Part shown: positions 9,848 to 22,578 of the stretch, in pieces | Layout of the letters: the number at the start of each line of letters is the position of its first letter | How positions within the stretch are numbered: position 1 is the stretch's first letter | Source of the DNA: an uncultured Armatimonadia bacterium | GTDB lineage: Bacteria > Armatimonadota > Zipacnadia > CAVVLO01 | Length of the DNA stretch: 64,000 nt | NCBI GenBank assembly: GCA_963749155.1 | Contig: CAVVLO010000002.1 | Location: 992,001 to 1,056,000 of the forward strand | Reading direction: 5' to 3' | Position numbers and translations under genes: made by a program | The notes under the pieces: generated by a model | Databases searched by the model: none | Seen by the model: only the letters and a program-made list of their open reading frames with translations | What the model was told of the DNA's origin: nothing

Positions 9848-10954
9848 ATGAAACCGCATCGATTGATACTGGTAGCCCTTGGGCTCTGTCTGATATCGGC
9901 ACTCGGCTGGGCCGGGTCTGTCACAGGGATTGTCTTTCTGGATGAAAATGCTAGTGGCGCTCGTGAAGCAGGTGAGGCAGGCATCGCAGGAGTGCAGGTC
10001 TCGGATGGCTTCACTCTTGCCCAGACAAATGCCGAGGGAACTTATGCCTTGACTGTGCCTGAGGGATATGCGGTGGTGCGGGTCACTAATCCAACCGGTT
10101 ATTGGTTCTCAGGACCTTTCTGGAAAGGCTTCGAATCAACCAGTGAGCCAATACAGGCCGATTTTGCGCTCATAAAGCAGGAGCAATCGCTGCCGGTGAC
10201 GTTTGCTGATATGACTGACGTCCACGTAAACGATACGGGTTTCCCGCGTTTCCAGGAGTTTATTGGACGCCTTAACGCGCAAGAACCTGCTCCGGCTTTC
10301 GTCATTGCGACAGGCGACCTGGTGATGGATGTACTGGGAGCGAAGACACCAGAACAAGTTGATCATCTTTATGGACTATACGAAACCGCCACGGCTGACC
10401 TCAAGCTGCGTCTTTTCAACTTGCCAGGCAACCACGAGCATGTCGGGTGGAATAGCGATTTTGATCGCGCCCATCCCTGGTTTGCCAAAGGCGCTTATCA
10501 GCGCAAGCTTGGGCCCCTTTATTACTCTCTTAATTATGGGCCTTATCATTTGCTGCTGCTGGACGCGACTACCCAGAATCCTGACGGTGGCTATTTCGAA
10601 GAGATCACCCCTGATTGCCTGGCCTGGCTCGAACAAGAGCTTGCCGCTACGCCGAAAGACTCGTTTCTCGTAGTGTTTGCCCATGAGCCCTTTTACGGCC
10701 TGCGTAATCGCTTCGCCCTGGGCAAATTGCTGACACGCGACCATAAGGTGGTTGCCTGCTTCAGTGGTCATACTCACAACCGGGACCATTATTACTTCTT
10801 TGGGGCGAAGGCCGAAGGCGCAGGAGCGGTCAGCGGTAGTTGGTGGAATGGCCCTAGTCCCGATGGCACTCCTGAAGGCTGCCTGCTTGTGACACTCGGG
10901 CCGCAGGGCATCGTGGACTGGACTTTCCTTGAAGGCTTCCCCAAAGTCGAATAA
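9848..10954 (+). CDS. secreted calcineurin-like metallophosphoesterase with N-terminal SdrD-B/MetallophosN-type domain
   Basis: signal peptide; GIVFLDENASG, GVQVSDG; DVH, TGDL, GNHE, AHEP, GHTH. Confidence 0.85.
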   Translation: MKPHRLILVALGLCLISALGWAGSVTGIVFLDENASGAREAGEAGIAGVQVSDGFTLAQTNAEGTYALTVPEGYAVVRVTNPTGYWFSGPFWKGFESTSEPIQADFALIKQEQSLPVTFADMTDVHVNDTGFPRFQEFIGRLNAQEPAPAFVIATGDLVMDVLGAKTPEQVDHLYGLYETATADLKLRLFNLPGNHEHVGWNSDFDRAHPWFAKGAYQRKLGPLYYSLNYGPYHLLLLDATTQNPDGGYFEEITPDCLAWLEQELAATPKDSFLVVFAHEPFYGLRNRFALGKLLTRDHKVVACFSGHTHNRDHYYFFGAKAEGAGAVSGSWWNGPSPDGTPEGCLLVTLGPQGIVDWTFLEGFPKVE

Positions 10955-11013
10955 CACTTTGTAAATTATCTGAAAATAGTCCTCTTGCGGTCGCCTTCGG
11001 GCGGCCGCAACTC

Positions 11014-11043
11014 TTGGCAACTCGTTTTGTCTCAAGTTATAAT
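11014..11043 (+). promoter_or_regulatory. sigma70-type promoter of OmpM unit 1
   Basis: TTGGCA-N18-TATAAT; the same -35 hexamer precedes all three units. Confidence 0.65.
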
Positions 11044-11067
11044 GCGGCAGTTGGGCTAGCCGAAGGA

Positions 11068-11177
11068 CGCTGGCAATCCGGTCGAGAAGGAGGTGCCCCC
11101 CGAGGCCACGCAAAAGCGTCACTCAAGTCAACCACTCAAGCTCAAAAAAGCCAAAGAGAGGCAACATGGTAACTCTC
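11068..11177 (+). ncRNA. conserved 5'-leader motif, copy 1 (candidate cis-regulatory RNA)
   Basis: blocks GGYAATC-GGYC-GGAGGTG-AGGCCACGC-AAGTC-GAGGCAAC-NNGGNNACTC shared with 15003-15105 and 18860-18969. Confidence 0.55.
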
Positions 11178-11255
11178 AAAGGCCGTCGGGCTTTGCAGGT
11201 TGATGCTGGAGTTTTCCCAACTCGCAGTAAACAACCATATGGGGGTTACACCAAA

Positions 11256-12991
11256 GTGAAAAAACTCGCAATCGCAGTAGTAGCGCTAGCGCTACTCGCG
11301 CTCGTGCTTGCCCCCGCGATGGCCAAGGATATGCCCGATGTTCCGTTCACCCACTGGGCCTATGACGCAGTGGACGAACTCACCGACATCGGCATTCTGC
11401 AGGGCTATCCGGACGGCACCTACAAAGGCCAGAGGACTCTTACCCGCTATGAGTTCGCCGAGGCCACAGTCAAGCTCGTGCATTACCTCGAGAACTACGT
11501 AGACGAAAAGACCGCCGCCCTGGAGGCTGGCGTTGACGCCGCCGAGGCGCGCGCTATCGCCAAGGACGAGGCCGCCAAAGCCGTTGCGGCCATCAAGCTG
11601 CCGACCTTCGACATGACGATGGATCAGGTTCGGGCCGCCGCTGCCGCCGCTGGCGCGCAGGCTGCCAAAGACGCCCTGGCCGGTATGAGCCCTGGCGTTA
11701 CCAAAGCCGAGGTTCAGGCCATGATCGATGGCGCAGTGCGCAACCTCGTGACCAAAGACTACGTTGACAACCTGGCCGCGGAGTTCCGCGCCGATATCCA
11801 GGAGCTTGGCGTAGATGTCGACGATCTGATGTATCGCGTCGACCAGCTCGAAGCCAAGCTTGTTGCCCTCGATGGCCGCGTATACGCCCTCGAGAACAAG
11901 CCTGACAAGGTCACTGGCAACCTCAAGTGGCGCGTCGGCACCGCCGAAGCCGTCAATGGCATGTATGTCGGCAACTGGGAGCGTTTCAGCAACCTGGAAG
12001 TGCGCGTCAACATCGACGGCAAGATCTCCGACAAGGCCCAGGGCCATATCGGTATCTGGCGTCCGGATGCCACCTATGACTGGGACAACCGCGGCACCCA
12101 CATCGACACCGCTTACGTAGATGTCCAGGACGGCCTGTTCAAGGGCGTAGACTGGCGCTTCGGCAAGCAGTACTACAAGACCGGCTGCGGCCTGACCTTC
12201 GACAACAATACCATCCCCGCAGAGGCCATCAAAGCCAACTTCACGCTGGCTGGCATCGACTTCACCGCTCTGCTGGGCTTCATCGACTCCTCGGCCCCAA
12301 GTTGGTTCAACTCGGGCGACGAGGAAGAGATCCAGGTCTACTCGGCTGCTTACGACTTTGGCCGACTTGGCCTGGTGGGCACGCTACTGCAGCGGGCCGA
12401 CTTCTATGGCGACTATGAAGCCGAGCGCTGGGGCATCGCCGCGATGTACGATGGGCTGGATATCCCGTTCTTCGGGCTCCAGGCTGATGTCGCTGGCGAG
12501 TATACGCAGCTCAAGGACTGGGTCGCGGACAACGCCTGGTACCTCGAAGCCAAGATCGCCGGGGCTGGCTATGAGCCTGGCGACCTGATGCTGAAGGCGA
12601 CCTTCTCCGACAACGAGGACATCTGGTACTGGCTGCGCAGTCGGCGTCAACTACAACGGCATGGTTATGTACAACGGCCTTGCCTGGGACTGGCTCCTGG
12701 ACGACAACAGCGTAATCGGCACCTACGGCGGCAAGACCTGGAGCGCCGCTCTCTCCAAGGACCTCGGTGGCATGGATGCGTTGCTGCGCTGGGTACGTTT
12801 CGACGATGGTCAGCCTTTGGATGATAACGGCTATTTCCGGGCCTGGTGATAGTGCCGACCTGTGGCAACTCAGCCTGACCAAGGAGATCGCCAAGGGCGT
12901 AGACGCCAAGCTGACTTATGCTCTGCTCGATGACGATTACCTGGATGACAGGTTCGACTACTTCGCTGGCTCCATCGACGTGAGCTTCTAA
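11256..12991 (+). CDS. OmpM/SlpA-like SLH-stalk-beta-barrel protein, type A copy 1 (two +1 frameshifts at ~12642 and ~12848)
   Basis: GTG start; signal peptide; SLH motif DVPFTHWAYDAV...GYPDGTYKG...TRYEFA; coiled coil; C-terminal IDVSF; otherwise nearly identical to intact 19052-20785. Confidence 0.85.
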
Positions 12992-13005
12992 CTGGCAAAA
13001 GCAAC

Positions 13006-13031
13006 TGGGGGCGGGGTTCGCCTCGCCCCCA
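13006..13031 (+). other. GC-rich UUCG hairpin between A and B genes (copies at 16951-16976 and 20800-20825)
   Basis: TGGGGGCGRGG-TTCG-CCTCGCCCCCA; copy 2 turns a G.U pair into A-U; no U-tract. Confidence 0.75.
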
Positions 13032-13052
13032 CTCCCTAAGGGGGATATACTA

Positions 13053-14879
13053 ATGAAGACACTAGCACTGGCAGTGACCATGTTGTTGATGGTTGCTTTG
13101 CTCGTGCCAGCCGTCGCCAAGGATATGCCGGACGTGCCCTTCGGTCACTGGGCCTACGACGCGGTGGACGAACTCACCGATCTGGGCGTAGTCGAAGGTT
13201 ATCCGGATGGCACTTTCAAAGGCGACCGGACCTGGACGCGCTATGAATTCGCGGTAATGCTCACGCGGATGATCGACTTCCTGGAGGACTACCTTGATTC
13301 GAAGGTAGCCGGGATGGATATGGGCATCACCGAGTCGGCGGCTCGCGCCATCGCTCGGGAAGAGGCCCAGAAAGCTGCCGCGGGCGTGCAACTGCCTGAC
13401 GTCGCGGCTTTCATGAACCAGGTTAACAGCACCGCCACCTCGGCTGGAGCAGCAGCGGCTCGCGAAGCGCTTGCGGGCTACAAGCCAGGCATCTCGAAGG
13501 CCGAGGCGCAGGCAATGATCGACGCCGCGGTCAAGAACTTCGTGGACAAGGGCGCCCTCGATGCGATGGCGCAGGAGTTCCGCGGCGAGCTTGCGATGCT
13601 GGGCGCCGACGTGGACGACCTGATGTACAGGGTCGACGCGCTGGAGACCAAGTTCGCGGCCCTCGAAGCGCGGGTAACCGCCCTCGAGAACAAGCCCGAC
13701 AAAGTCACTGGCGTAATCGAGTGGAAAGCTGGCACCAACGAGTTCCCCGAGACTGGCGAGATCAATCCCAATGAGAACCTTGTTGGACTCGGTGCGCCTG
13801 CCCGCGACTATCTACCCGCTGGCCCAGGCTGGAACCGCTTCAGCAATCTCTCGGTCAAGGTAAACATCGACGGTAAAATCAGCGACAAGGCTCAGGGCCA
13901 TATCACTCTGTGGCGTCCCGATGCCACCTACGATTATATGGGCCGGGGCACCCACATCGACACTGCTTACGTGGATGTCCAGGATGGCCTTTTCAAGGGC
14001 GTAGACTGGCGTCTTGGCAAGCAGTATTTCAAGACAGGCTGTGGCCTGGTATTCGACAATGACCTGTTCCCTTCAGAAGCTGCCAAGCTGAGCTTTAATC
14101 TTGGCGGACTAGATCTGACTGGCTTCTTCGGCTGGACCGACTTCAGTCCAATGGAGGAAGCGTCCGAAGAACCGACCTATGTTGGCGAGGCCAAGTATAG
14201 CTTCGGACGACTCGACCTGGACGGTACCTATATGTTCAGGGGCGAAGGCGGCGCCAGGCGCTGGGGCATCGCGGCTGGGTACGAAGGGCTGGACGTGCCC
14301 TTCTTTGGGCTCAAAGCCAATGTCAAGGGCGAATGGGCTTCGATCGTAGATGCAATAGGGGGCGGAGTGCTGCCTCCTGGTATCTCGGACGAGGCTTATT
14401 ATGCCCGCGCAGATATCATGGGCAAGGGTTGGGAACCAGGCGACTGGATGTTTACAACCACCTGGGCCGAGCAGCAGCTTGGTTATCTGGCCCTCCTCAA
14501 CAGCACCCATCCATATAGCCTGGGCGTTCTCTACAATGGCTTGCCCTGGGACTATATGCTCAGCGACAACGTGACAATGGGCCAGCCTGGCATGTTCGCT
14601 TATAGCGCTGGGCTGTCTGGAGAACTGGCTAATATGCCTGTCAGTCTCCGTTGGGCGCGTTGGTCACCAACTGGAGCTTTGCTGGCTGCACTCGGCGCTC
14701 CAGCCGGCGTAGACTTCGACATCGACGTCTACCAGGTGACCCTCGACAAGGAACTGGCAGAAGGAGTTATGGCTCGCCTTACCTGGGCCAACTTCAAGCC
14801 AAGCATCGACTCTCCAGTTCCTATACCCTACGACCTGGAAGCGCAGTACGTTGGTGGTTCCATCAACGTGCTGTTCTAA
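13053..14879 (+). CDS. OmpM/SlpA-like SLH-stalk-beta-barrel protein, type B copy 1
   Basis: signal peptide; DVPFGHWAYDAV...GYPDGTFKG...TRYEFA; coiled coil; C-terminal INVLF. Confidence 0.88.
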   Translation: MKTLALAVTMLLMVALLVPAVAKDMPDVPFGHWAYDAVDELTDLGVVEGYPDGTFKGDRTWTRYEFAVMLTRMIDFLEDYLDSKVAGMDMGITESAARAIAREEAQKAAAGVQLPDVAAFMNQVNSTATSAGAAAAREALAGYKPGISKAEAQAMIDAAVKNFVDKGALDAMAQEFRGELAMLGADVDDLMYRVDALETKFAALEARVTALENKPDKVTGVIEWKAGTNEFPETGEINPNENLVGLGAPARDYLPAGPGWNRFSNLSVKVNIDGKISDKAQGHITLWRPDATYDYMGRGTHIDTAYVDVQDGLFKGVDWRLGKQYFKTGCGLVFDNDLFPSEAAKLSFNLGGLDLTGFFGWTDFSPMEEASEEPTYVGEAKYSFGRLDLDGTYMFRGEGGARRWGIAAGYEGLDVPFFGLKANVKGEWASIVDAIGGGVLPPGISDEAYYARADIMGKGWEPGDWMFTTTWAEQQLGYLALLNSTHPYSLGVLYNGLPWDYMLSDNVTMGQPGMFAYSAGLSGELANMPVSLRWARWSPTGALLAALGAPAGVDFDIDVYQVTLDKELAEGVMARLTWANFKPSIDSPVPIPYDLEAQYVGGSINVLF

Positions 14880-14901
14880 GCAACATTCAAACCCGCAACA
14901 G

Positions 14902-14935
14902 AGAGTCCGGGGCTTCGGCTTCGGACTCTTTTTTT
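14902..14935 (+). terminator. intrinsic terminator of unit 1
   Basis: AGAGTCCGGGGC-TTCG-GCTTCGGACTCT followed by a T-run. Confidence 0.85.
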
Positions 14936-14945
14936 GTGATATGGG

Positions 14946-14974
14946 TTGGCAGAAAAGCAATCTCGTATTACAAT
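14946..14974 (+). promoter_or_regulatory. sigma70-type promoter of OmpM unit 2
   Basis: TTGGCA-N17-TACAAT. Confidence 0.65.
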
Positions 14975-15002
14975 ATTTTACAGAAGTTTTACAGAGAGCT
15001 GC

Positions 15003-15105
15003 GGTAATCGGGCCACCAGGGAGGTGAGCTTCGAGGCCACGCCAAGTTCTCAAATAAGTCACTTCGTGGGCAGTCCGAGAGTAGGACGAGGCAACACGGT
15101 GACTC
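15003..15105 (+). ncRNA. conserved 5'-leader motif, copy 2 (most divergent)
   Basis: GGTAATC-GGGCC-GGAGGTG-AGGCCACGC-AAGTC-GAGGCAACACGGTGACTC. Confidence 0.55.
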
Positions 15106-15175
15106 CTCTACCCTCGTGACTTCCCTATAACGATTAAGTTCGTCAGGTAATATCCCAAATTAGGGGGGGTCATAA

Positions 15176-16936
15176 GTGAAACCACTTGCAGCTACGGTAG
15201 TAGCGCTAGCGCTACTCGCGCTCGTGCTTGCCCCCGCGATGGCCAAGGATATGCCCGATGTTCCGTTCACCCACTGGGCCTATGACGCAGTGGACGAACT
15301 CACCGACATCGGCATTCTGCAGGGCTATCCGGACGGCACCTACAAAGGCCAGAGGACTCTTACCCGCTATGAGTTCGCCGAGGCCACAGTCAAGCTCGTG
15401 CATTACCTCGAGAACTACGTAGACGAAAAGACCGCCGCCCTGGAGGCTGGCGTTGACGCCGCCGAGGCGCGCGCTATCGCCAAGGACGAGGCCGCCAAAG
15501 CAGTCGCGGCCATCAAGCTGCCGACCTTCGACATGACGATGGATCAGGTTCGGGCCGCCGCTGCCGCCGCTGGCGCGCAGGCTGCCAAAGACGCCCTGGC
15601 CGGTATGAGCCCTGGCGTTACCAAAGCCGAGGTTCAGGCCATGATTGATGGCGCAGTGCGCAACCTCGTGACCAAAGACTACGTTGACAACCTGGCCGCG
15701 GAGTTCCGCGCCGATATCCAGGAGCTTGGCGTTGACGTAGACGATCTGATGTACCGCGTTGACCAGCTCGAAGCCAAACTTGTTGCCCTCGATGGCCGCG
15801 TATACGCCCTCGAGAACAAGCCTGACAAGGTCACTGGCAACCTCAAGTGGCGCGTCGGCACCGCCGAGGCTGCTAATGAGTATTACGATGCCATGTATGG
15901 GTGGATCAACTATCCAGGTAACTGGGAGCGCTTCAGCAACCTGGAAGTGCGCGTCAACATCGATGGCAAGATCTCGGACAAGGCCCAGGGCCATATCGGT
16001 ATCTGGCGTCCAGATGCCACCTATGACTGGGACAACCGTGGCACCCATATCGACACCGCTTACGTGGATGTCCAGGACGGCCTGTTCAAGGGCGTAGACT
16101 GGCGCTTCGGCAAGCAGTATCTGAAGACCGGCTGCGGCCTGACCTTCGACAACAATACCATCCCCGCCGAAGCCATCAAGGCCAACTTCACACTGGCTGG
16201 TATCGACTTCACCGCTCTGCTGGGCTTCATCGATGCCTCCGACCCGAGCTACTTTATGAGTGGCGACGAGGAAGAGATCCAGGTCTACTCGGCTGCTTAC
16301 AGCTTCGGCCGGCTTGGCCTGGTGGGTACGCTGCTCGAGCGCGCTGATTTCTATGGCGACTACGAAGCCGAGCGCTGGGGCATCGCCGCGATGTACGATG
16401 GGCTGGATATCCCGTTCTTCGGACTCCAGGCTGACGTCGCTGGCGAGTATACCCAGCTTGAGGACTGGGTTGCAGACAACGCCTGGTACCTCGAAGCCAA
16501 GATCGCCAAGAAGGGTTACGAGCCTGGCGACCTGATGCTGAAGGCGACCTTCTCCGACAACGAGGACATCTGGTACTGGCTTCGTTCGGCTGTCAACTAC
16601 AATGGCATGGTGCTGTATAACGGCCTTGCCTGGGACTGGATCCTGGACGACAACAGCCTGGTAGGCACCTTCGGCGGCAAGACCTGGAGCGCCGCTCTCT
16701 CCAAGGACCTCGGTGGCGTAGACGCACTGCTGCGCTGGGTGCGTTACACTGACAGCCAACCGCTCGATGACAATGGCAACTTCTGGACCTACGATGACGC
16801 CGACCTGTGGCAACTCAGCCTGACCAAGGAGATCGCCAAAGGTGTAGACGCCAAGCTGACCTATGCCCAACTCAATGACAAAGCCTTCGATGAGAAGTTC
16901 GACTACTTCGCTGGCTCGATCGACGTGAGTTTCTAA
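15176..16936 (+). CDS. OmpM/SlpA-like protein, type A copy 2
   Basis: same SLH/stalk as other A copies; differs in discrete loop-like segments; C-terminal IDVSF. Confidence 0.88.
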   Translation: MKPLAATVVALALLALVLAPAMAKDMPDVPFTHWAYDAVDELTDIGILQGYPDGTYKGQRTLTRYEFAEATVKLVHYLENYVDEKTAALEAGVDAAEARAIAKDEAAKAVAAIKLPTFDMTMDQVRAAAAAAGAQAAKDALAGMSPGVTKAEVQAMIDGAVRNLVTKDYVDNLAAEFRADIQELGVDVDDLMYRVDQLEAKLVALDGRVYALENKPDKVTGNLKWRVGTAEAANEYYDAMYGWINYPGNWERFSNLEVRVNIDGKISDKAQGHIGIWRPDATYDWDNRGTHIDTAYVDVQDGLFKGVDWRFGKQYLKTGCGLTFDNNTIPAEAIKANFTLAGIDFTALLGFIDASDPSYFMSGDEEEIQVYSAAYSFGRLGLVGTLLERADFYGDYEAERWGIAAMYDGLDIPFFGLQADVAGEYTQLEDWVADNAWYLEAKIAKKGYEPGDLMLKATFSDNEDIWYWLRSAVNYNGMVLYNGLAWDWILDDNSLVGTFGGKTWSAALSKDLGGVDALLRWVRYTDSQPLDDNGNFWTYDDADLWQLSLTKEIAKGVDAKLTYAQLNDKAFDEKFDYFAGSIDVSF

Positions 16937-16999
16937 CTGGCAAAAGCAACTGGGGGCGAGGTTCGCCTCGCCCCCACTCCCTATAAGGGGGATATACTA

Positions 17000-18734
17000 A
17001 TGAAGACACTAGCCTTGGCAGTGACCCTTCTGTTGATGGTCGCTTTGCTCGTGCCAGCCGTCGCCAAGGATATGCCGGACGTGCCCTTCGGTCACTGGGC
17101 CTACGACGCGGTGGACGAACTCACCGATCTGGGCGTAGTCGAAGGTTATCCGGATGGCACTTTCAAAGGCGACCGGACCTGGACGCGCTATGAATTCGCG
17201 GTAATGCTCACGCGGATGATCGACTTCCTGGAGGACTACCTCGATTCGAAGGTAGCCGGGATGGATATGGGCATCACCGAGTCGGCGGCTCGCGCCATCG
17301 CTCGGGAAGAGGCCCAGAAAGCTGCCGCGGGCGTGCAACTGCCTGACGTCGCGGCTTTCATGAACCAGGTTAACAGCACAGCCACCTCGGCAGGTGCAGC
17401 AGCGGCTCGCGAAGCGCTTGCGGGCTACAAGCCGGGCATCTCGAAGGCCGAGGCGCAGGCAATGATCGACGCCGCGGTCAAGAACTTCGTGGACAAGGGC
17501 GCCCTCGATGCGATGGCGCAGGAGTTCCGCGGCGAGCTTGCGATGCTGGGCGCCGACGTGGACGACCTGATGTACAGGGTCGATGCGCTGGAGACCAAGT
17601 TCGCGGCCCTGGAAGCGCGGGTAACCGCCCTCGAGAACAAGCCCGACAAAGTCACTGGCGTAATCGAGTGGAAAGCTGGCTCTGTCGAGCCACTTGGCTT
17701 TGGGATGTATGGGCCATATGCTCGTAGCTGGGAACGTTTCAGCAACCTCTCGGTTAAGATCAACATCGATGGCAAGATCTCCGACAAGGCCCAGGGCCAT
17801 ATCGGTATCTGGCGTCCGGATGCCACCTATGACTGGGACAACCGCGGCACCCATATCGATACCGCTTACGTAGATGTCCAGGACGGCCTGTTCAAGGGCG
17901 TAGACTGGCGTTTTGGCAAGCAGTATTTCAAGACAGGCTATGGCCTGGTTTTTGATAATGACATACAGCCTTCCGAAGCTGTCAAACTCAACTTCCAACT
18001 GGGCGCACTTGATCTGACCGGTTTCTTCGGTTGGACCGATTGCCCCTATGGCTTTGGCGATGAAGATCCAACTTATGTTGGTGAAGCCAAATACAACATC
18101 GGCAGGCTTACACTGGATGGCACGTATGTCTTCCGGTCTGAAGTTGGCGCCAAGCGTTGGGGCATTGCAGCTGGGTACAAGGGGCTCGATGTGCCGTTCT
18201 TCGGCGCTAAAGCTGACCTCAAAGGCGAGTTCGGCGAGGTAATCAACGGCAACGGCGGAGGAGGAGTACCGTCCTCCATCGACAACGCCTATTTTGCGCG
18301 CGCTGACTTTATGGGCAACGGTTATGAGCCAGGCGACTTCAAACTCGGAGTAAGCTGGTCCGAGCAGCAGCGGGCATACCGTCCGTGGCTATGGAGCGGT
18401 TCGACTTATGACCATTATGTCCATTATGGCAGCTCGGCGATCGGCTCAGCCTGGGACTTCCTGCCTAGGCGAGAATTTCCAGGTTGGCGGACTGCTCTCG
18501 GGTACCCGCTGGACTGGCGAGATCGAGAAGGATCTTGGCAACCTAGGCCTGTTCCTTCGTTACGCGCAAATGAAAACTTGGGGTGCTCCTGAATATAGCA
18601 AGCTTTATCAGCTTGCTCTGGACAAGGAACTAGCCGATGGGGTCAACGCCAAGCTGACCTACGCGCGGATTGACTATGGTATGTTGGACACCGAGACCGA
18701 CTACTTCGGCGGCTCCATCAACGTAGACTTCTAA
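17000..18734 (+). CDS. OmpM/SlpA-like protein, type B copy 2 (+1 frameshift at ~18464)
   Basis: ORF 17000 joined to the 18408-18734 frame gives ...WDFLLGENFQ...INVDF. Confidence 0.85.
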
Positions 18735-18759
18735 CCGGTTAGTTCAAGCGACACAAAAG

Positions 18760-18790
18760 AGCCCGGGGCTTCGGCCCCGGGCTTCTGTTT
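18760..18790 (+). terminator. intrinsic terminator of unit 2
   Basis: GCCCGGGGC-TTCG-GCCCCGGGC then TTCTGTTT. Confidence 0.8.
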
Positions 18791-18805
18791 GGGAGGATAC
18801 TACTG

Positions 18806-18834
18806 TTGGCAGAACGTGATTTTCCAGATACAAT
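18806..18834 (+). promoter_or_regulatory. sigma70-type promoter of OmpM unit 3
   Basis: TTGGCA-N17-TACAAT. Confidence 0.65.
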
Positions 18835-18859
18835 AACAACAGGTTGGAAAGCAGAGGGG

Positions 18860-18969
18860 CGCTGGTAATCTGGCCAAAAAGGAGGTGTCCCCCAAGGCCA
18901 CGCCGAGGCGTCACTCAAGTCAGCTCAAAGAGAATCTGAAGGAGAACTCGAGAGGCAACTAGGATACTC
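18860..18969 (+). ncRNA. conserved 5'-leader motif, copy 3
   Basis: GGTAATC-TGGCC-GGAGGTG-AGGCCACGC-AAGTC-GAGGCAACTAGGATACTC. Confidence 0.55.
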
Positions 18970-19051
18970 CCGATCTTCCTCCTTCTTTTCTCCTTGTGAT
19001 GATGCTTGGGTATGCCAACCCGAATGTATACACCAACAAGGGGAAATCAAA

Positions 19052-20785
19052 GTGAAAAAACTCGCAATCGCAGTAGTAGCGCTAGCGCTGCTCGCGCTCG
19101 TACTTGCCCCCGCGATGGCCAAGGATATGCCCGATGTTCCGTTCACCCACTGGGCCTATGACGCAGTGGACGAACTCACCGACATCGGCATTCTGCAGGG
19201 CTATCCGGACGGCACCTACAAAGGCCAGAGGACTCTTACCCGCTATGAGTTCGCCGAGGCCACAGTCAAGCTCGTGCATTACCTCGAGAACTACGTAGAC
19301 GAAAAGACCGCCGCCCTGGAGGCTGGCGTTGACGCCGCCGAGGCGCGCGCTATCGCCAAGGACGAGGCCGCCAAAGCCGTCGCAGCCATCAAGCTGCCGA
19401 CCTTCGACATGACGATGGATCAGGTTCGGGCCGCCGCTGCCGCCGCTGGCGCGCAGGCTGCCAAAGACGCCCTGGCCGGCATGAGCCCTGGCGTTACCAA
19501 AGCCGAGGTTCAGGCCATGATCGATGGCGCAGTGCGCAACCTCGTGACCAAAGACTACGTTGACAACCTGGCCGCGGAGTTCCGCGCCGATATCCAGGAG
19601 CTTGGCGTAGATGTCGACGATCTGATGTATCGCGTCGACCAGCTCGAAGCCAAGCTTGTTGCCCTCGATGGCCGCGTATACGCCCTCGAGAACAAGCCTG
19701 ACAAGGTCACTGGCAACCTCAAGTGGCGCGTCGGCACCGCCGAAGCCGTCAATGGCATGTATGTCGGCAACTGGGAGCGTTTCAGCAACCTGGAAGTGCG
19801 CGTCAACATCGACGGCAAGATCTCCGACAAGGCCCAGGGCCATATCGGTATCTGGCGTCCGGATGCCACCTATGACTGGGACAACCGCGGCACCCACATC
19901 GACACCGCTTACGTAGATGTCCAGGACGGCCTGTTCAAGGGCGTAGACTGGCGCTTCGGCAAGCAGTACTACAAGACCGGCTGCGGCCTGACCTTCGACA
20001 ACAATACCATCCCCGCAGAGGCCATCAAAGCCAACTTCACGCTGGCTGGTATCGACTTCACCGCTCTGCTGGGCTTCATCGACTCCTCGGCCCCAAGTTG
20101 GTTCAACTCGGGCGACGAGGAAGAGATCCAGGTCTACTCGGCTGCTTACGACTTTGGCCGACTTGGCCTGGTGGGCACGCTACTGCAGCGGGCCGACTTC
20201 TATGGCGACTATGAAGCCGAGCGCTGGGGCATCGCCGCGATGTACGATGGGCTGGATATCCCGTTCTTCGGGCTCCAGGCTGATGTCGCTGGCGAGTATA
20301 CGCAGCTCAAGGACTGGGTCGCGGACAACGCCTGGTACCTCGAAGCCAAGATCGCCGGGGCTGGCTATGAGCCTGGCGACCTGATGCTGAAGGCGACCTT
20401 CTCCGACAACGAGGACATCTGGTACTGGCTGCGCAGTGGCGTCAACTACAACGGCATGGTTATGTACAACGGCCTTGCCTGGGACTGGCTCCTGGACGAC
20501 AACAGCGTAATCGGCACCTACGGCGGCAAGACCTGGAGCGCCGCTCTCTCCAAGGACCTCGGTGGCATGGATGCGTTGCTGCGCTGGGTACGTTTCGACG
20601 ATGGTCAGCCTTTGGATGATAACGGCTATTTCCGGGCCTGGTATAGTGCCGACCTGTGGCAACTCAGCCTGACCAAGGAGATCGCCAAGGGCGTAGACGC
20701 CAAGCTGACTTATGCTCTGCTCGATGACGATTACCTGGATGACAGGTTCGACTACTTCGCTGGCTCCATCGACGTGAGCTTCTAA
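19052..20785 (+). CDS. OmpM/SlpA-like protein, type A copy 3 (intact)
   Basis: 577 aa: signal peptide, SLH, stalk, barrel-like region, terminal Phe. Confidence 0.9.
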   Translation: MKKLAIAVVALALLALVLAPAMAKDMPDVPFTHWAYDAVDELTDIGILQGYPDGTYKGQRTLTRYEFAEATVKLVHYLENYVDEKTAALEAGVDAAEARAIAKDEAAKAVAAIKLPTFDMTMDQVRAAAAAAGAQAAKDALAGMSPGVTKAEVQAMIDGAVRNLVTKDYVDNLAAEFRADIQELGVDVDDLMYRVDQLEAKLVALDGRVYALENKPDKVTGNLKWRVGTAEAVNGMYVGNWERFSNLEVRVNIDGKISDKAQGHIGIWRPDATYDWDNRGTHIDTAYVDVQDGLFKGVDWRFGKQYYKTGCGLTFDNNTIPAEAIKANFTLAGIDFTALLGFIDSSAPSWFNSGDEEEIQVYSAAYDFGRLGLVGTLLQRADFYGDYEAERWGIAAMYDGLDIPFFGLQADVAGEYTQLKDWVADNAWYLEAKIAGAGYEPGDLMLKATFSDNEDIWYWLRSGVNYNGMVMYNGLAWDWLLDDNSVIGTYGGKTWSAALSKDLGGMDALLRWVRFDDGQPLDDNGYFRAWYSADLWQLSLTKEIAKGVDAKLTYALLDDDYLDDRFDYFAGSIDVSF

Positions 20786-20846
20786 CTGGCAAAAGCAACT
20801 GGGGGCGGGGTTCGCCTCGCCCCCACTCCCTAAGGGGGATATACTA

Positions 20847-22578
20847 ATGAAGACACTAGCACTGGCAGTGACCATGTTGTTGATGGTTGCTTTGCTCGTG
20901 CCAGCCGTCGCCAAGGATATGCCAGACGTGCCCTTCGGTCACTGGGCCTACGACGCGGTGGACGAACTCACCGATCTGGGCGTAGTCGAAGGTTATCCGG
21001 ATGGCACTTTCAAAGGCGACCGGACCTGGACGCGCTATGAATTCGCGGTAATGCTCACGCGGATGATCGACTTCCTGGAGGACTACCTCGATTCGAAGGT
21101 AGCCGGGATGGATATGGGCATCACCGAGTCGGCGGCTCGCGCCATCGCTCGGGAAGAGGCCCAGAAAGCTGCCGCGGGCGTGCAACTGCCTGACGTCGCG
21201 GCTTTCATGAACCAGGTTAACAGCACCGCCACCTCGGCTGGAGCAGCAGCGGCTCGCGAAGCGCTTGCGGGCTACAAGCCAGGCATCTCGAAGGCCGAGG
21301 CGCAGGCAATGATCGACGCCGCGGTCAAGAACTTCGTGGACAAGGGCGCCCTCGATGCGATGGCGCAGGAGTTCCGCGGCGAGCTTGCGATGCTGGGCGC
21401 CGACGTGGACGACCTGATGTACAGGGTCGACGCGCTGGAGACCAAGTTCGCGGCCCTCGAAGCGCGGGTAACCGCCCTCGAGAACAAGCCCGACAAAGTC
21501 ACTGGCGTAATCGAGTGGAAAGCTGGTACCGCCAATGATGGCAGCAGCTGGAATCGCTTCAGCAACCTTGACTTGAAGGTAAACATCGATGGCAAAATAA
21601 GTGACAAGGCCCAGGGCCATGTCACCCTGTGGCGTCCGGATGCCACCTACGACTGGGACGAGCGCGGCACTCACATCGACACCGCTTACGTAGACGTCCA
21701 GGATGGCCTGTTCAAGGGCTTCGACTGGCGTTTGGGCAAGCAGTATTACAAGACCGGCTGCGGTCTGACCTTCGATAACGATGTCATGCCCGCCGAAGCT
21801 GTCAAGCTCAACTTCGACCTGCTTGGCGCCGATGCGACCGTGTTCTGGGGTACCAGCGATTACGCCGATAGCTGGTTTGGCTATGACGATGAGATGGTCA
21901 CCCTGCTTTACAACCTCAAGAAGCAGTTCGGCCATCTGACCCTGGATGGCACTTTCGTCGATCGCAACCTGTGGGAAGATGAGCAGCGTTGGGGCATCGC
22001 CGCAATGTATGAGGGGCTGGACGTGCCGTTCTTCGGCCTGAAGGCTGACCTCGAGGGCGAGTATACCCAATATGACAAGCCCTGGACTTCCTACAACTCC
22101 TACTACACTGGAGCCACGTTGAAGGGCAAGAACTATGAGCCGGGCGACTTGAAGCTCAAGCTGACCTTCGCAGACAATCCCTACTATGACGAGTACTGGC
22201 CTTACCAGAACGGCTTCATCACCTATGATGGATTTGTCTGGTACAGCAACCTGGCCTGGGACTTCCTTCTTGTCGGATGCCCCGAACCTGGGCGTGCCCT
22301 ACGGGAAGACCTGGAGCGCTACTCTGACCAAGGATCTGGGCTGCGTGGACGCGCTGCTGCGCTGGCGCAAATATGTACCCGACAATGCGGCCGGGTACAT
22401 CTACCTGGATTCCTGGGGCTACTCTTACCTTTACAACCAGGGCGACCTGTGGCAGCTCAGCCTCACCAAGGAGCTTGCAGAGGGCGTAGACGCCAAGCTG
22501 ACTTATGCTCAGCTCAATGACAACTATTACGATGAGACCTACAAGTACTTTGGTGGCAGCATCAACGTAGGCTTCTAA
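20847..22578 (+). CDS. OmpM/SlpA-like protein, type B copy 3 with A-like barrel (+1 frameshift at ~22270)
   Basis: ORF 20847 joined to the 22186-22578 frame gives ...WDFLLSDAP...INVGF. Confidence 0.85.

Follow-up and report, generated by a model that had tools for sequence, protein, structure and literature searches.

A candidate new structured RNA leader upstream of SLH outer-membrane protein operons in an uncultured Armatimonadia bacterium

We analysed a 64,000-nt stretch of DNA (hereafter the window) from an uncultured Armatimonadia bacterium (assembly GCA_963749155.1, contig CAVVLO010000002.1, positions 992,001 to 1,056,000 of the forward strand). Positions 11256-22520 of its plus strand hold three two-gene operons, each preceded by one leader, and the genes encode proteins with S-layer homology (SLH) domains and coiled coils. 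The leaders share two hairpin modules, named D1 and D2, which recur upstream of SLH genes in related genomes. It is well established, to a degree close to certainty, that this element is a conserved, structured and strand-specific cis RNA of genes for SLH outer-membrane proteins (SLH-OMPs). The host genome (4.17 Mb, 100% complete) is the sole member of its family among the genomes compared, and its nearest kin share only its class. The features of the locus are listed below; bit scores refer to the covariance models of D1 (R2) and D2 (R3), and duplex energies to the predicted pairing with the 3' tail of the 16S rRNA.

11014..11043, + strand: promoter-like site of operon 1, TTGGCA-18-TATAAT, 11/12 consensus matches, the best in 10900-19100, predicted transcription start site (TSS) ~11050
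11066..11120, + strand: D1 of leader 1, R2 match of 44.3 bits, 16S-tail duplex -16.3 kcal/mol
11066-11071 with 11115-11120 and 11080-11083 with 11104-11107, + strand: helices P1 and P2, respectively, of leader 1 D1
11087-11095, + strand: candidate decoy Shine-Dalgarno at the apex of leader 1 D1, AAGGAGGUG
11150..11183, + strand: D2 of leader 1, stem GAGAG/CUCUC (11156-11160 with 11173-11177), R3 match C2:1003142-1003190
11161-11172, + strand: loop of leader 1 D2, GCAACAUGGUAA
11241..11258, + strand: true ribosome-binding site of SLH gene 1, GGGGG 11241-11245, GTG start 11256
11256-12824 and 13053-14879, + strand: open reading frames (ORFs) of operon 1, SLH plus coiled-coil, OmpM/SlpA-type
14946..14974, + strand: promoter-like site of operon 2, TTGGCA-17-TACAAT, 10/12, predicted TSS ~14981
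14994..15051, + strand: D1 of leader 2, R2 39.0 bits, 16S-tail duplex -16.8 kcal/mol
15018-15026, + strand: candidate decoy Shine-Dalgarno of leader 2, AGGGAGGUG
15073..15120, + strand: D2 of leader 2, loop GCAACACGGUGA at 15091-15102, GAG/CUC closing
15163..15178, + strand: true ribosome-binding site of SLH gene 3, GGGGGGG 15163-15169, GTG start 15176
15176-16936 and 17000-18592, + strand: ORFs of operon 2, same type
18806..18834, + strand: promoter-like site of operon 3, TTGGCA-17-TACAAT, 10/12, predicted TSS ~18841
18854..18916, + strand: D1 of leader 3, R2 47.6 bits, 16S-tail duplex -17.0 kcal/mol
18878-18887, + strand: candidate decoy Shine-Dalgarno of leader 3, AAAGGAGGUG
18939..18984, + strand: D2 of leader 3, loop GCAACUAGGAUA at 18955-18966, GAG/CUC closing, R3 match C2:1010936-1010984
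19040..19054, + strand: true ribosome-binding site of SLH gene 5, GGGG 19040-19043, GTG start 19052
19052-20785 and 20847-22520, + strand: ORFs of operon 3, same type

An N-terminal SLH domain is recognised by Pfam in 6/6 operon products, and the N-terminal part (SLH plus stalk) matches PDB entries 8bys and 8bym ('S-layer homology domain-containing protein') as well as 7zgx (Deinococcus SlpA). Pfam does not recognise the C-terminal barrel part; in look-alike Atlas clusters, OMP_b-brl or Porin_4 is found on 11-19% of members. The label 'OmpM-type' is reasonable for the six products judging from these matches, and not proven for their C-terminal half. In diderm lineages without Lpp, OmpM-type proteins fasten the outer membrane to the wall, and they are among the most abundant proteins of the cell.

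Each operon has a promoter-like site of its own. The top three sigma-70-like sites of 10900-19100 sit immediately before the three leaders, ~15-25 nt from D1, and each is followed by an untranslated stretch of ~200 nt. RNA-library contigs cover 18850-19008 without differences and bridge 18954-19278 into the coding sequence, a hint of transcription of leader 3 that is only weak, as DNA may be present in such libraries. Of the 11 RNA-library contig pieces, none reaches into 18400-18849, a gap that is no evidence for a TSS. When folded as a whole, the leaders are predicted to form a row of independent hairpins (D1, D2 and D3) ahead of the ribosome-binding region, the D2 loop being ~75-135 nt away from the true ribosome-binding site. 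In relatives (e.g. loci L104, L109 and L097), an extra hairpin with covarying stems, D0, occupies the 40-60 nt before D1 and directly follows an extended -10 promoter (TGnTATAGT-like); leaders of the host genome are without D0 and start almost at D1.

A first-pass annotation, made from the letters alone, had described three otherwise divergent leaders that keep ordered sequence blocks. The blocks are indeed there, and aligning the entire intergenic region gives a mean column identity of 72%. In the 4.17-Mb genome there are four instances of the composite pattern GGYAATC.GGYC..GGAGGTG, three of them in the window; the fourth copy, located by a genome-wide regular-expression search, lies on contig C3 before a fourth near-identical SLH gene encoding 577 aa. 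Two more divergent SLH paralogues (57% and 52% identical) keep the 3' block GGCAAC-NN-GGNNAC-YC upstream. Genome-wide, this block is matched 13 times. Seven of the matches fall inside open frames of at least 214 aa; the six intergenic ones each stand before an SLH paralogue. The GGAGGTG motif had been said to lie far from the start with no properly spaced start codon; it is 167, 156 and 171 nt before the three GTG starts, with no ATG, GTG or TTG within 12 nt. The proposed GGYC/GGCC pairing proves to be helix P2 of D1 (GGYC/GRCC), in which a U-G pair becomes U-A in copy 4 and which is 95.9% paired in 41 distinct class sequences, and the terminal GAG-loop-CTC hairpin is the conserved D2. Other details did not hold up as conserved features. 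Class-wide, the bases of the local ACGC/GCGT stem belong to the 3' strand of the long-range helix P1; AAGTCA, which contains the AAGTC block, is present only in the host genome's copies; and conservation of the copy-2 pairing between GGAGGTG and TCACTTC was not confirmed. Outside the window, the fifth paralogue's leader (G000 C2:1378849-1379100, - strand) places the anti-SD-like strand before the SD-like one, the reverse of the usual order (CCCUCC-UUUUC-GGAGGAG), and CCCUCC matches the Shine-Dalgarno GGGAGG of its own gene over 6 nt.

The same annotation had been unable to place the leader in a known family. We ran cmscan against Rfam 15 at gathering thresholds over the 64 kb, at E<=10 over 10900-19100, and at E<=1 for the loci of 20 relatives. 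The whole window gives 0 matches at gathering score. At E<=10, 9 matches are found in 10900-19100, all far below gathering and none on the plus strand inside a leader; at E<=1, the relatives' loci give 5 matches, none at the leaders. Covariance models bear out the annotation's core claim of a conserved, structured cis element before each operon, as both stems covary and homologues are found class-wide, phylum-wide and in a second phylum.

Three models were used: R1, a full-length model from the four own copies; R2, restricted to D1 (75 positions, 16 pairs); and R3, restricted to D2 (50 positions, 7 pairs). R1 found nothing in 60 class relatives because the linker length varies. When scored locally with filters off on the SLH loci of relatives, which a protein query had located in 60/61 genomes, it gave paired 5' and 3' matches, in the right order and upstream of the genes, and R2 and R3 were built from these matches. 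Exact-pattern scans of two public collections (35 genome-contig loci and 37 metagenome-contig loci) produced 13 weak R1 matches, the best at 15.4 bits; we rejected them as chance because they are limited to the search pattern itself. R2 detects D1 in 53/79 class genomes (17/18 in family f10, 14/17 in f7, 10/16 in f11 and 0/4 in f5) and in 0/137 genomes sampled from the phylum's other classes. R3 detects D2 in 66/79 class genomes, including 36/41 high-quality ones and 17/18 of f10, and in 33/137 genomes of the other classes. Among 20 other-class R3 matches inspected, 17 contain the loop motif and 3 weak ones do not, and 13/16 downstream ORFs carry SLH. In the Cyanobium-containing phylum, 5 of 121 sampled genomes have R3 matches; two of these five and one further relative possess GAG-GAAAC-NN-GGACA-CUC hairpins ~80 nt before SLH proteins, and the other three matches look like chance. 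Five genomes of other phyla, reached through loci, yielded 1 weak match, inside a coding frame.

The arrangement of the modules is also preserved. D2 is nearly always upstream of an SLH gene, all 41/41 distinct D1 matches have D2 22-53 nt downstream, and a signal-peptide ORF starts 189-292 nt after the model start in 37/41 distinct sequences. The orthologues behind the conserved modules share only ~30-35% protein identity. Because both modules recur upstream of orthologues at the class-wide frequencies given above, the leader signal exceeds both chance and paralogue descent. If the similarity were a functionless leftover of recent operon duplication, it would fit the shared ancestry of the four near-identical paralogues and their nearly identical coding 5' ends, but not modules and covarying stems kept before such distant orthologues, in other classes and in another phylum; we give this explanation almost no credence.

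D1 is a rod hairpin, P1-P2-P3. Its outer helix P1 has 6-9 bp and is often extended by a helix P0; then come a 5'-side internal loop (consensus AAUCC), P2 (GGC/GCC), and the apical region NNAGAAGGGAGGG-N-CCUCC, where GGAG/CUCC is able to form a short P3. In an alignment of 41 distinct sequences fitted to the model, 13/16 pairs change on both sides, including 9/9 in P1, and the covariation score is 0.275 as compared to 0.164 in shuffles (0/500 reach 0.275) and 0.07-0.20 with slid partners; the signal is already present on a plain MAFFT alignment. The register of P1 shifts from family to family, which keeps its pairing in fixed columns down to 63%, and single-sequence folds recover P1-P2-P3 in most sequences. 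G-U pairs are frequent, and the D1 fold is therefore specific to the mRNA strand.

In D2, a long hairpin, the stem covaries freely and the 12-13-nt loop, G(A/C)AAC-N2-3-GGNNA, is nearly invariant. The loop is bipartite, with two GGNNAC half-sites 8-9 nt apart (GGNNAC-N2-3-GGNNAC). Its spacer measures 2 nt in all 17 other-class sequences, in the host genome and in 4 class relatives, and 3 nt in 33/41 class sequences; the closing GAG/CUC becomes CAG/CUG in 4/41 class and 4/17 other-class sequences. Native D2 stems have a mean energy of -17.95 kcal/mol, versus -10.22 kcal/mol with swapped 3' flanks (41 native, 1632 swapped), and the native 3' flank ranks within the best 5% for 23/41 sequences. 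For a fixed 9-pair helix the covariation score is 0.224 versus 0.107 (0/500 shuffles), and the count of doubly changed pairs is not above shuffles (173/500). The distance from D2 to the start codon is variable (35-155 nt), and in other classes D2 stands alone at that distance. Just 3' of D2, f10 loci (L085, L090, L097, L103 and L104) hold a conserved tract, UCCUUCUC(A/G)CAG, that is complementary to the true Shine-Dalgarno region UGAGGAGGA and pairs with it in 4 minimum-energy folds.

Several other explanations of the D2 block were rejected. In copy 1, the D2 loop contains an ATG in frame with the gene (ORF 11166-12824), which could indicate a leader peptide or an alternative start; it is not a start because ACG, TAG, TAG, CTG and CAG occupy its place in the other five copies. 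A sigma-54 or extracytoplasmic function (ECF) promoter was discarded by eye, the spacing and the -10 element not being kept among copies. Complementarity of the loop to rRNA is at chance level (2-6 perfect 7-mers per loop vs ~4 expected). Finally, kissing of the D1 internal loop (AAUCC) with the GGA of the D2 loop was dismissed by eye, since the tract varies (UCC, ACC, UCU, UUC) and the D2 loop is near-constant.

The leader forms a new RNA family within a known kind, and its mechanism is something that we infer. It is a candidate Rfam entry, and its covariance model marks major OMP operons in uncultured genomes. Our literature search found no paper on OmpM leaders or on post-transcriptional control of OmpM-type proteins. 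As to mechanism, the first-pass annotation had offered a riboswitch, a protein-binding leader and an mRNA-stabilising element without choosing; the riboswitch is now the least supported, and the stabilising and factor-binding leaders are both plausible.

Conservation in D1 peaks at a purine tract that is left unpaired or pairs weakly and reads AGAAGGGAGG in relatives, AAGGAGGUG in the host genome. Its columns reach 1.5-2.0 bits, as compared to 0.76-1.47 for the 3' strand of P3 and 0.15-1.1 for P1. The 16S gene of the host genome ends with ...GGAUCACCUCCUUUC, and its 19-mer tail, GGCUGGAUCACCUCCUUUC, recurs without a change in each of the 27 class genomes in which it could be located. The purine tract is complementary to 9-10 nt of this 3' tail, and no start codon follows it. 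With the 16S tail, D1 is predicted to form a duplex of -15.4 kcal/mol on average and the true Shine-Dalgarno one of -10.8 kcal/mol, D1 being the stronger in 37/37, where the energies exclude the cost of opening P3. In addition, the host genome encodes RNase J (TIGR00649, 480.9 bits vs a cut-off of 400).

We tentatively favour a cis-acting stability/translation leader, in which the D1 tract would act as a decoy Shine-Dalgarno against RNase J decay and the D2 loop would dock a trans factor. The stacked hairpins, together with a 30S subunit held at the decoy, would keep 5'-end-dependent (RNase J-type) decay away from the 5' part of the mRNA, so that the message of a very abundant envelope protein would last long. 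The docked factor, more likely a protein than an RNA, would act on all SLH-OMP paralogues together. If D1 is a decoy that holds the 30S, STAB-SD-type stabilisation extends beyond Bacillus and its kin.

There are precedents for the stabilising part of this proposal. According to PMC7509114, transcripts of ompA and ermC need no start codon to be stable provided that they have a strong Shine-Dalgarno, and in B. subtilis a cryIII reporter is stabilised by an additional Shine-Dalgarno that is not translated. The same paper describes the E. coli ompA 5' untranslated region (UTR), like the present one a structured leader of a major peptidoglycan-tethering outer-membrane protein, whose hairpins and ribosome binding confer translation-independent stability. 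The leader studied here is without sequence or structural homology to it (no Rfam match) and is longer (~190-290 nt, three to four hairpins), and its invariant loops imply specific recognition. In B. subtilis hbs, according to PMC5737220, ribosomes at the strong Shine-Dalgarno of a structured 5' UTR block RNase J1; there the protective Shine-Dalgarno is the translated one, whereas here it would be a separate upstream decoy. Another parallel is the Bacillus thuringiensis cry3A STAB-SD (Agaisse and Lereclus 1996, described in PMC7509114), which also consists of an SD-like, 16S-complementary tract in a long 5' UTR, without a start codon, in a host that encodes RNase J. Unlike it, the tract here is at the tip of a conserved rod hairpin, is partly paired and is always accompanied by a second conserved hairpin, and the stabilisation is only presumed. 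With S-layer gene leaders the likeness is one of description only: the slpA UTLS of Lactobacillus acidophilus, attributed to Narita et al. in 2006, is reportedly a long untranslated leader of an S-layer gene, and here too a long untranslated leader sits on the gene of a very abundant envelope protein.

Several points weigh against the decoy proposal. The tract itself is partly paired in P3, with 87% of cells paired. It is ~40 nt from the predicted TSS in the host and ~100 nt in relatives, behind D0, whereas the cry3A STAB-SD reportedly lies close to the 5' end. Moreover, D1 is confined to one class (0/137 others) and D2 is phylum-wide, so that decoy stabilisation cannot explain the oldest and most conserved part of the leader.

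The familiar candidates for the trans factor also fail as universal partners, which counts against the proposal as well. CsrA/RsmA-bound leaders present GGA in hairpin loops or at the Shine-Dalgarno, as do AGGGA in D1 and AGGAA or NGGA in the D2 of most relatives; on the other side, the host's own D2 loops have GGC or GGU rather than GGA. CsrA is encoded in the host, but in only 30/79 class genomes and in 0/18 of f10, and it is excluded as universal reader because f10 keeps D1 and D2 (17/18 each) without it. Hfq is present in 53/79 class genomes and absent from the 100%-complete host; it is excluded because the hairpin is kept where Hfq is absent, that is, in the host and in 6/10 other-class carriers. 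A link between Hfq and the 3-nt loop spacer failed too, as 4/10 carriers of the 2-nt spacer have Hfq.

Because the decoy idea leaves D2 unexplained, a feedback operator is a serious rival, although rather unlikely in our estimate. Under it, a dedicated RNA-binding protein or an unexported SLH-OMP precursor would bind the D2 loop, and perhaps D1, to repress or activate the translation or decay of every SLH-OMP mRNA, matching OMP synthesis to envelope assembly. Loop bases that stay invariant on covarying stems across one phylum and into a second speak for it, as do the bipartite layout of the loop and the regulon-like distribution in the host genome, where 6/6 intergenic instances precede SLH paralogues. 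Thermus thermophilus SlpA is reported to bind its own 5' UTR, although the literature search found no paper on the Thermus slpA leader. The exclusion of CsrA and Hfq tells against this rival too, and the variable 35-155 nt between D2 and the start makes direct occlusion of the ribosome-binding site unlikely. A broader version, possible though doubtful, would make D2 an ancient RNA operator of the OmpM/SLH tether, present in at least two phyla of SLH-tethered diderms and read by a dedicated RNA-binding regulator. Such an operator would couple tether synthesis to envelope assembly, and would have no counterpart in the Proteobacterial sigmaE/sRNA/Hfq scheme. Whatever reads it, the invariant D2 loop, kept across the phylum and into another, is a concrete bait for finding the regulator.

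Conserved single-stranded loops on stable stems, the same site on several OMP mRNAs per genome and the presence of Hfq in 53/79 class genomes are also what a small RNA (sRNA) target would present. The seed of such an sRNA, common to all OMP mRNAs, would then pair with the D2 loop or with the D1 purine tract, in an envelope-stress circuit of the MicA/RybB style. Yet within one genome the loops of the six copies vary at 5-6 positions and have only the 6-mer GGMAAC in common, no antisense copy of the motif exists outside coding frames in the host genome, and the host is without Hfq, which leaves the sRNA target unlikely.

A translational switch or RNA thermometer would have the 3' strand of P3 (CCUCC/CCCCC), or a CU-rich tract after D2, alternate between the decoy and the true Shine-Dalgarno. 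The strands do match: CCCCC in P3 faces a true Shine-Dalgarno GGGG(G) in copies 1, 3 and 4, relatives have CCUCC/GGAGG, the minimum-energy fold of copy 1 pairs GGUGCCCCC with GGGGGUUACACC, and in f10 the post-D2 UCCUUCUCA is complementary to UGAGGAGGA. However, the CCCCC/GGGG match is a single evolutionary event, and the CU tract is missing from family f7. Nor does accessibility point to sequestration: the ribosome-binding site has an unpaired probability of 0.49 in native leaders and 0.50 with shuffled upstream sequence, is higher in the native in 19/37, and pairs with D1 in only 2/37. We consider such a switch improbable.

The accessibility results bear equally on a metabolite or ion riboswitch, which the long, conserved, structured 5' UTR without an Rfam match might bring to mind. 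A terminator scan detected no plus-strand terminator-like site inside the leaders, and with no signal of Shine-Dalgarno sequestration either, a riboswitch is unlikely. Conservation falls on the apical loops of hairpins that fold independently and not on a junction of several helices, which argues against a ligand pocket, and both the D1-D2 linker and the D2-start distance vary widely. Hence we hold it to be the least likely mechanism. A minus-strand terminator-like site at 18881-18893 was rejected as an artefact, being the D1 tip (GGAGGUGUCCCCC) read backwards beside an A-run.

The leader could also be a processing signal, with an endoribonuclease of the RNase III, E/G or Y type cutting at D1/D2 and leaving D2 as a protective 5'-terminal hairpin. 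Long rod-like helices with conserved loops would suit such an enzyme, D2 stands alone 35-155 nt before the start in other classes, and RNase Y cleavage in a structured 5' UTR is described in PMC5737220. We nevertheless rate processing as a long shot.

Some further observations concern the SLH genes themselves. At the DNA level, the four main paralogues hardly differ over their first ~250 coding bases, whereas their leaders have diverged (window 11256-11500, 15190-15450 and 19052-19300; L001:2800-3068, - strand), a pattern suggestive of gene conversion or of strong selection acting on the signal peptide and the SLH portion. Near their C-terminal ends, three SLH genes out of the six (window 11256-12988, 17000-18731 and 20847-22575) match the query protein across 2-3 frames. 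SLH gene 1 matches query residues 1-463, then 462-531 with an internal TGA, then 532-577, and in operons 2 and 3 the frame of the second gene changes at ~residue 480. These breaks indicate either frameshifted pseudogenes or assembly indel errors. Outside the class but within the phylum, two D2 hairpins stand before small signal-peptide proteins of 264-265 aa (L168:396-1190, - strand, and L173:489-1280, + strand). These proteins have no SLH and no Pfam match and have the motif LPLNPTAQIP in common; they could form a further family of outer-membrane proteins governed by the D2 element.

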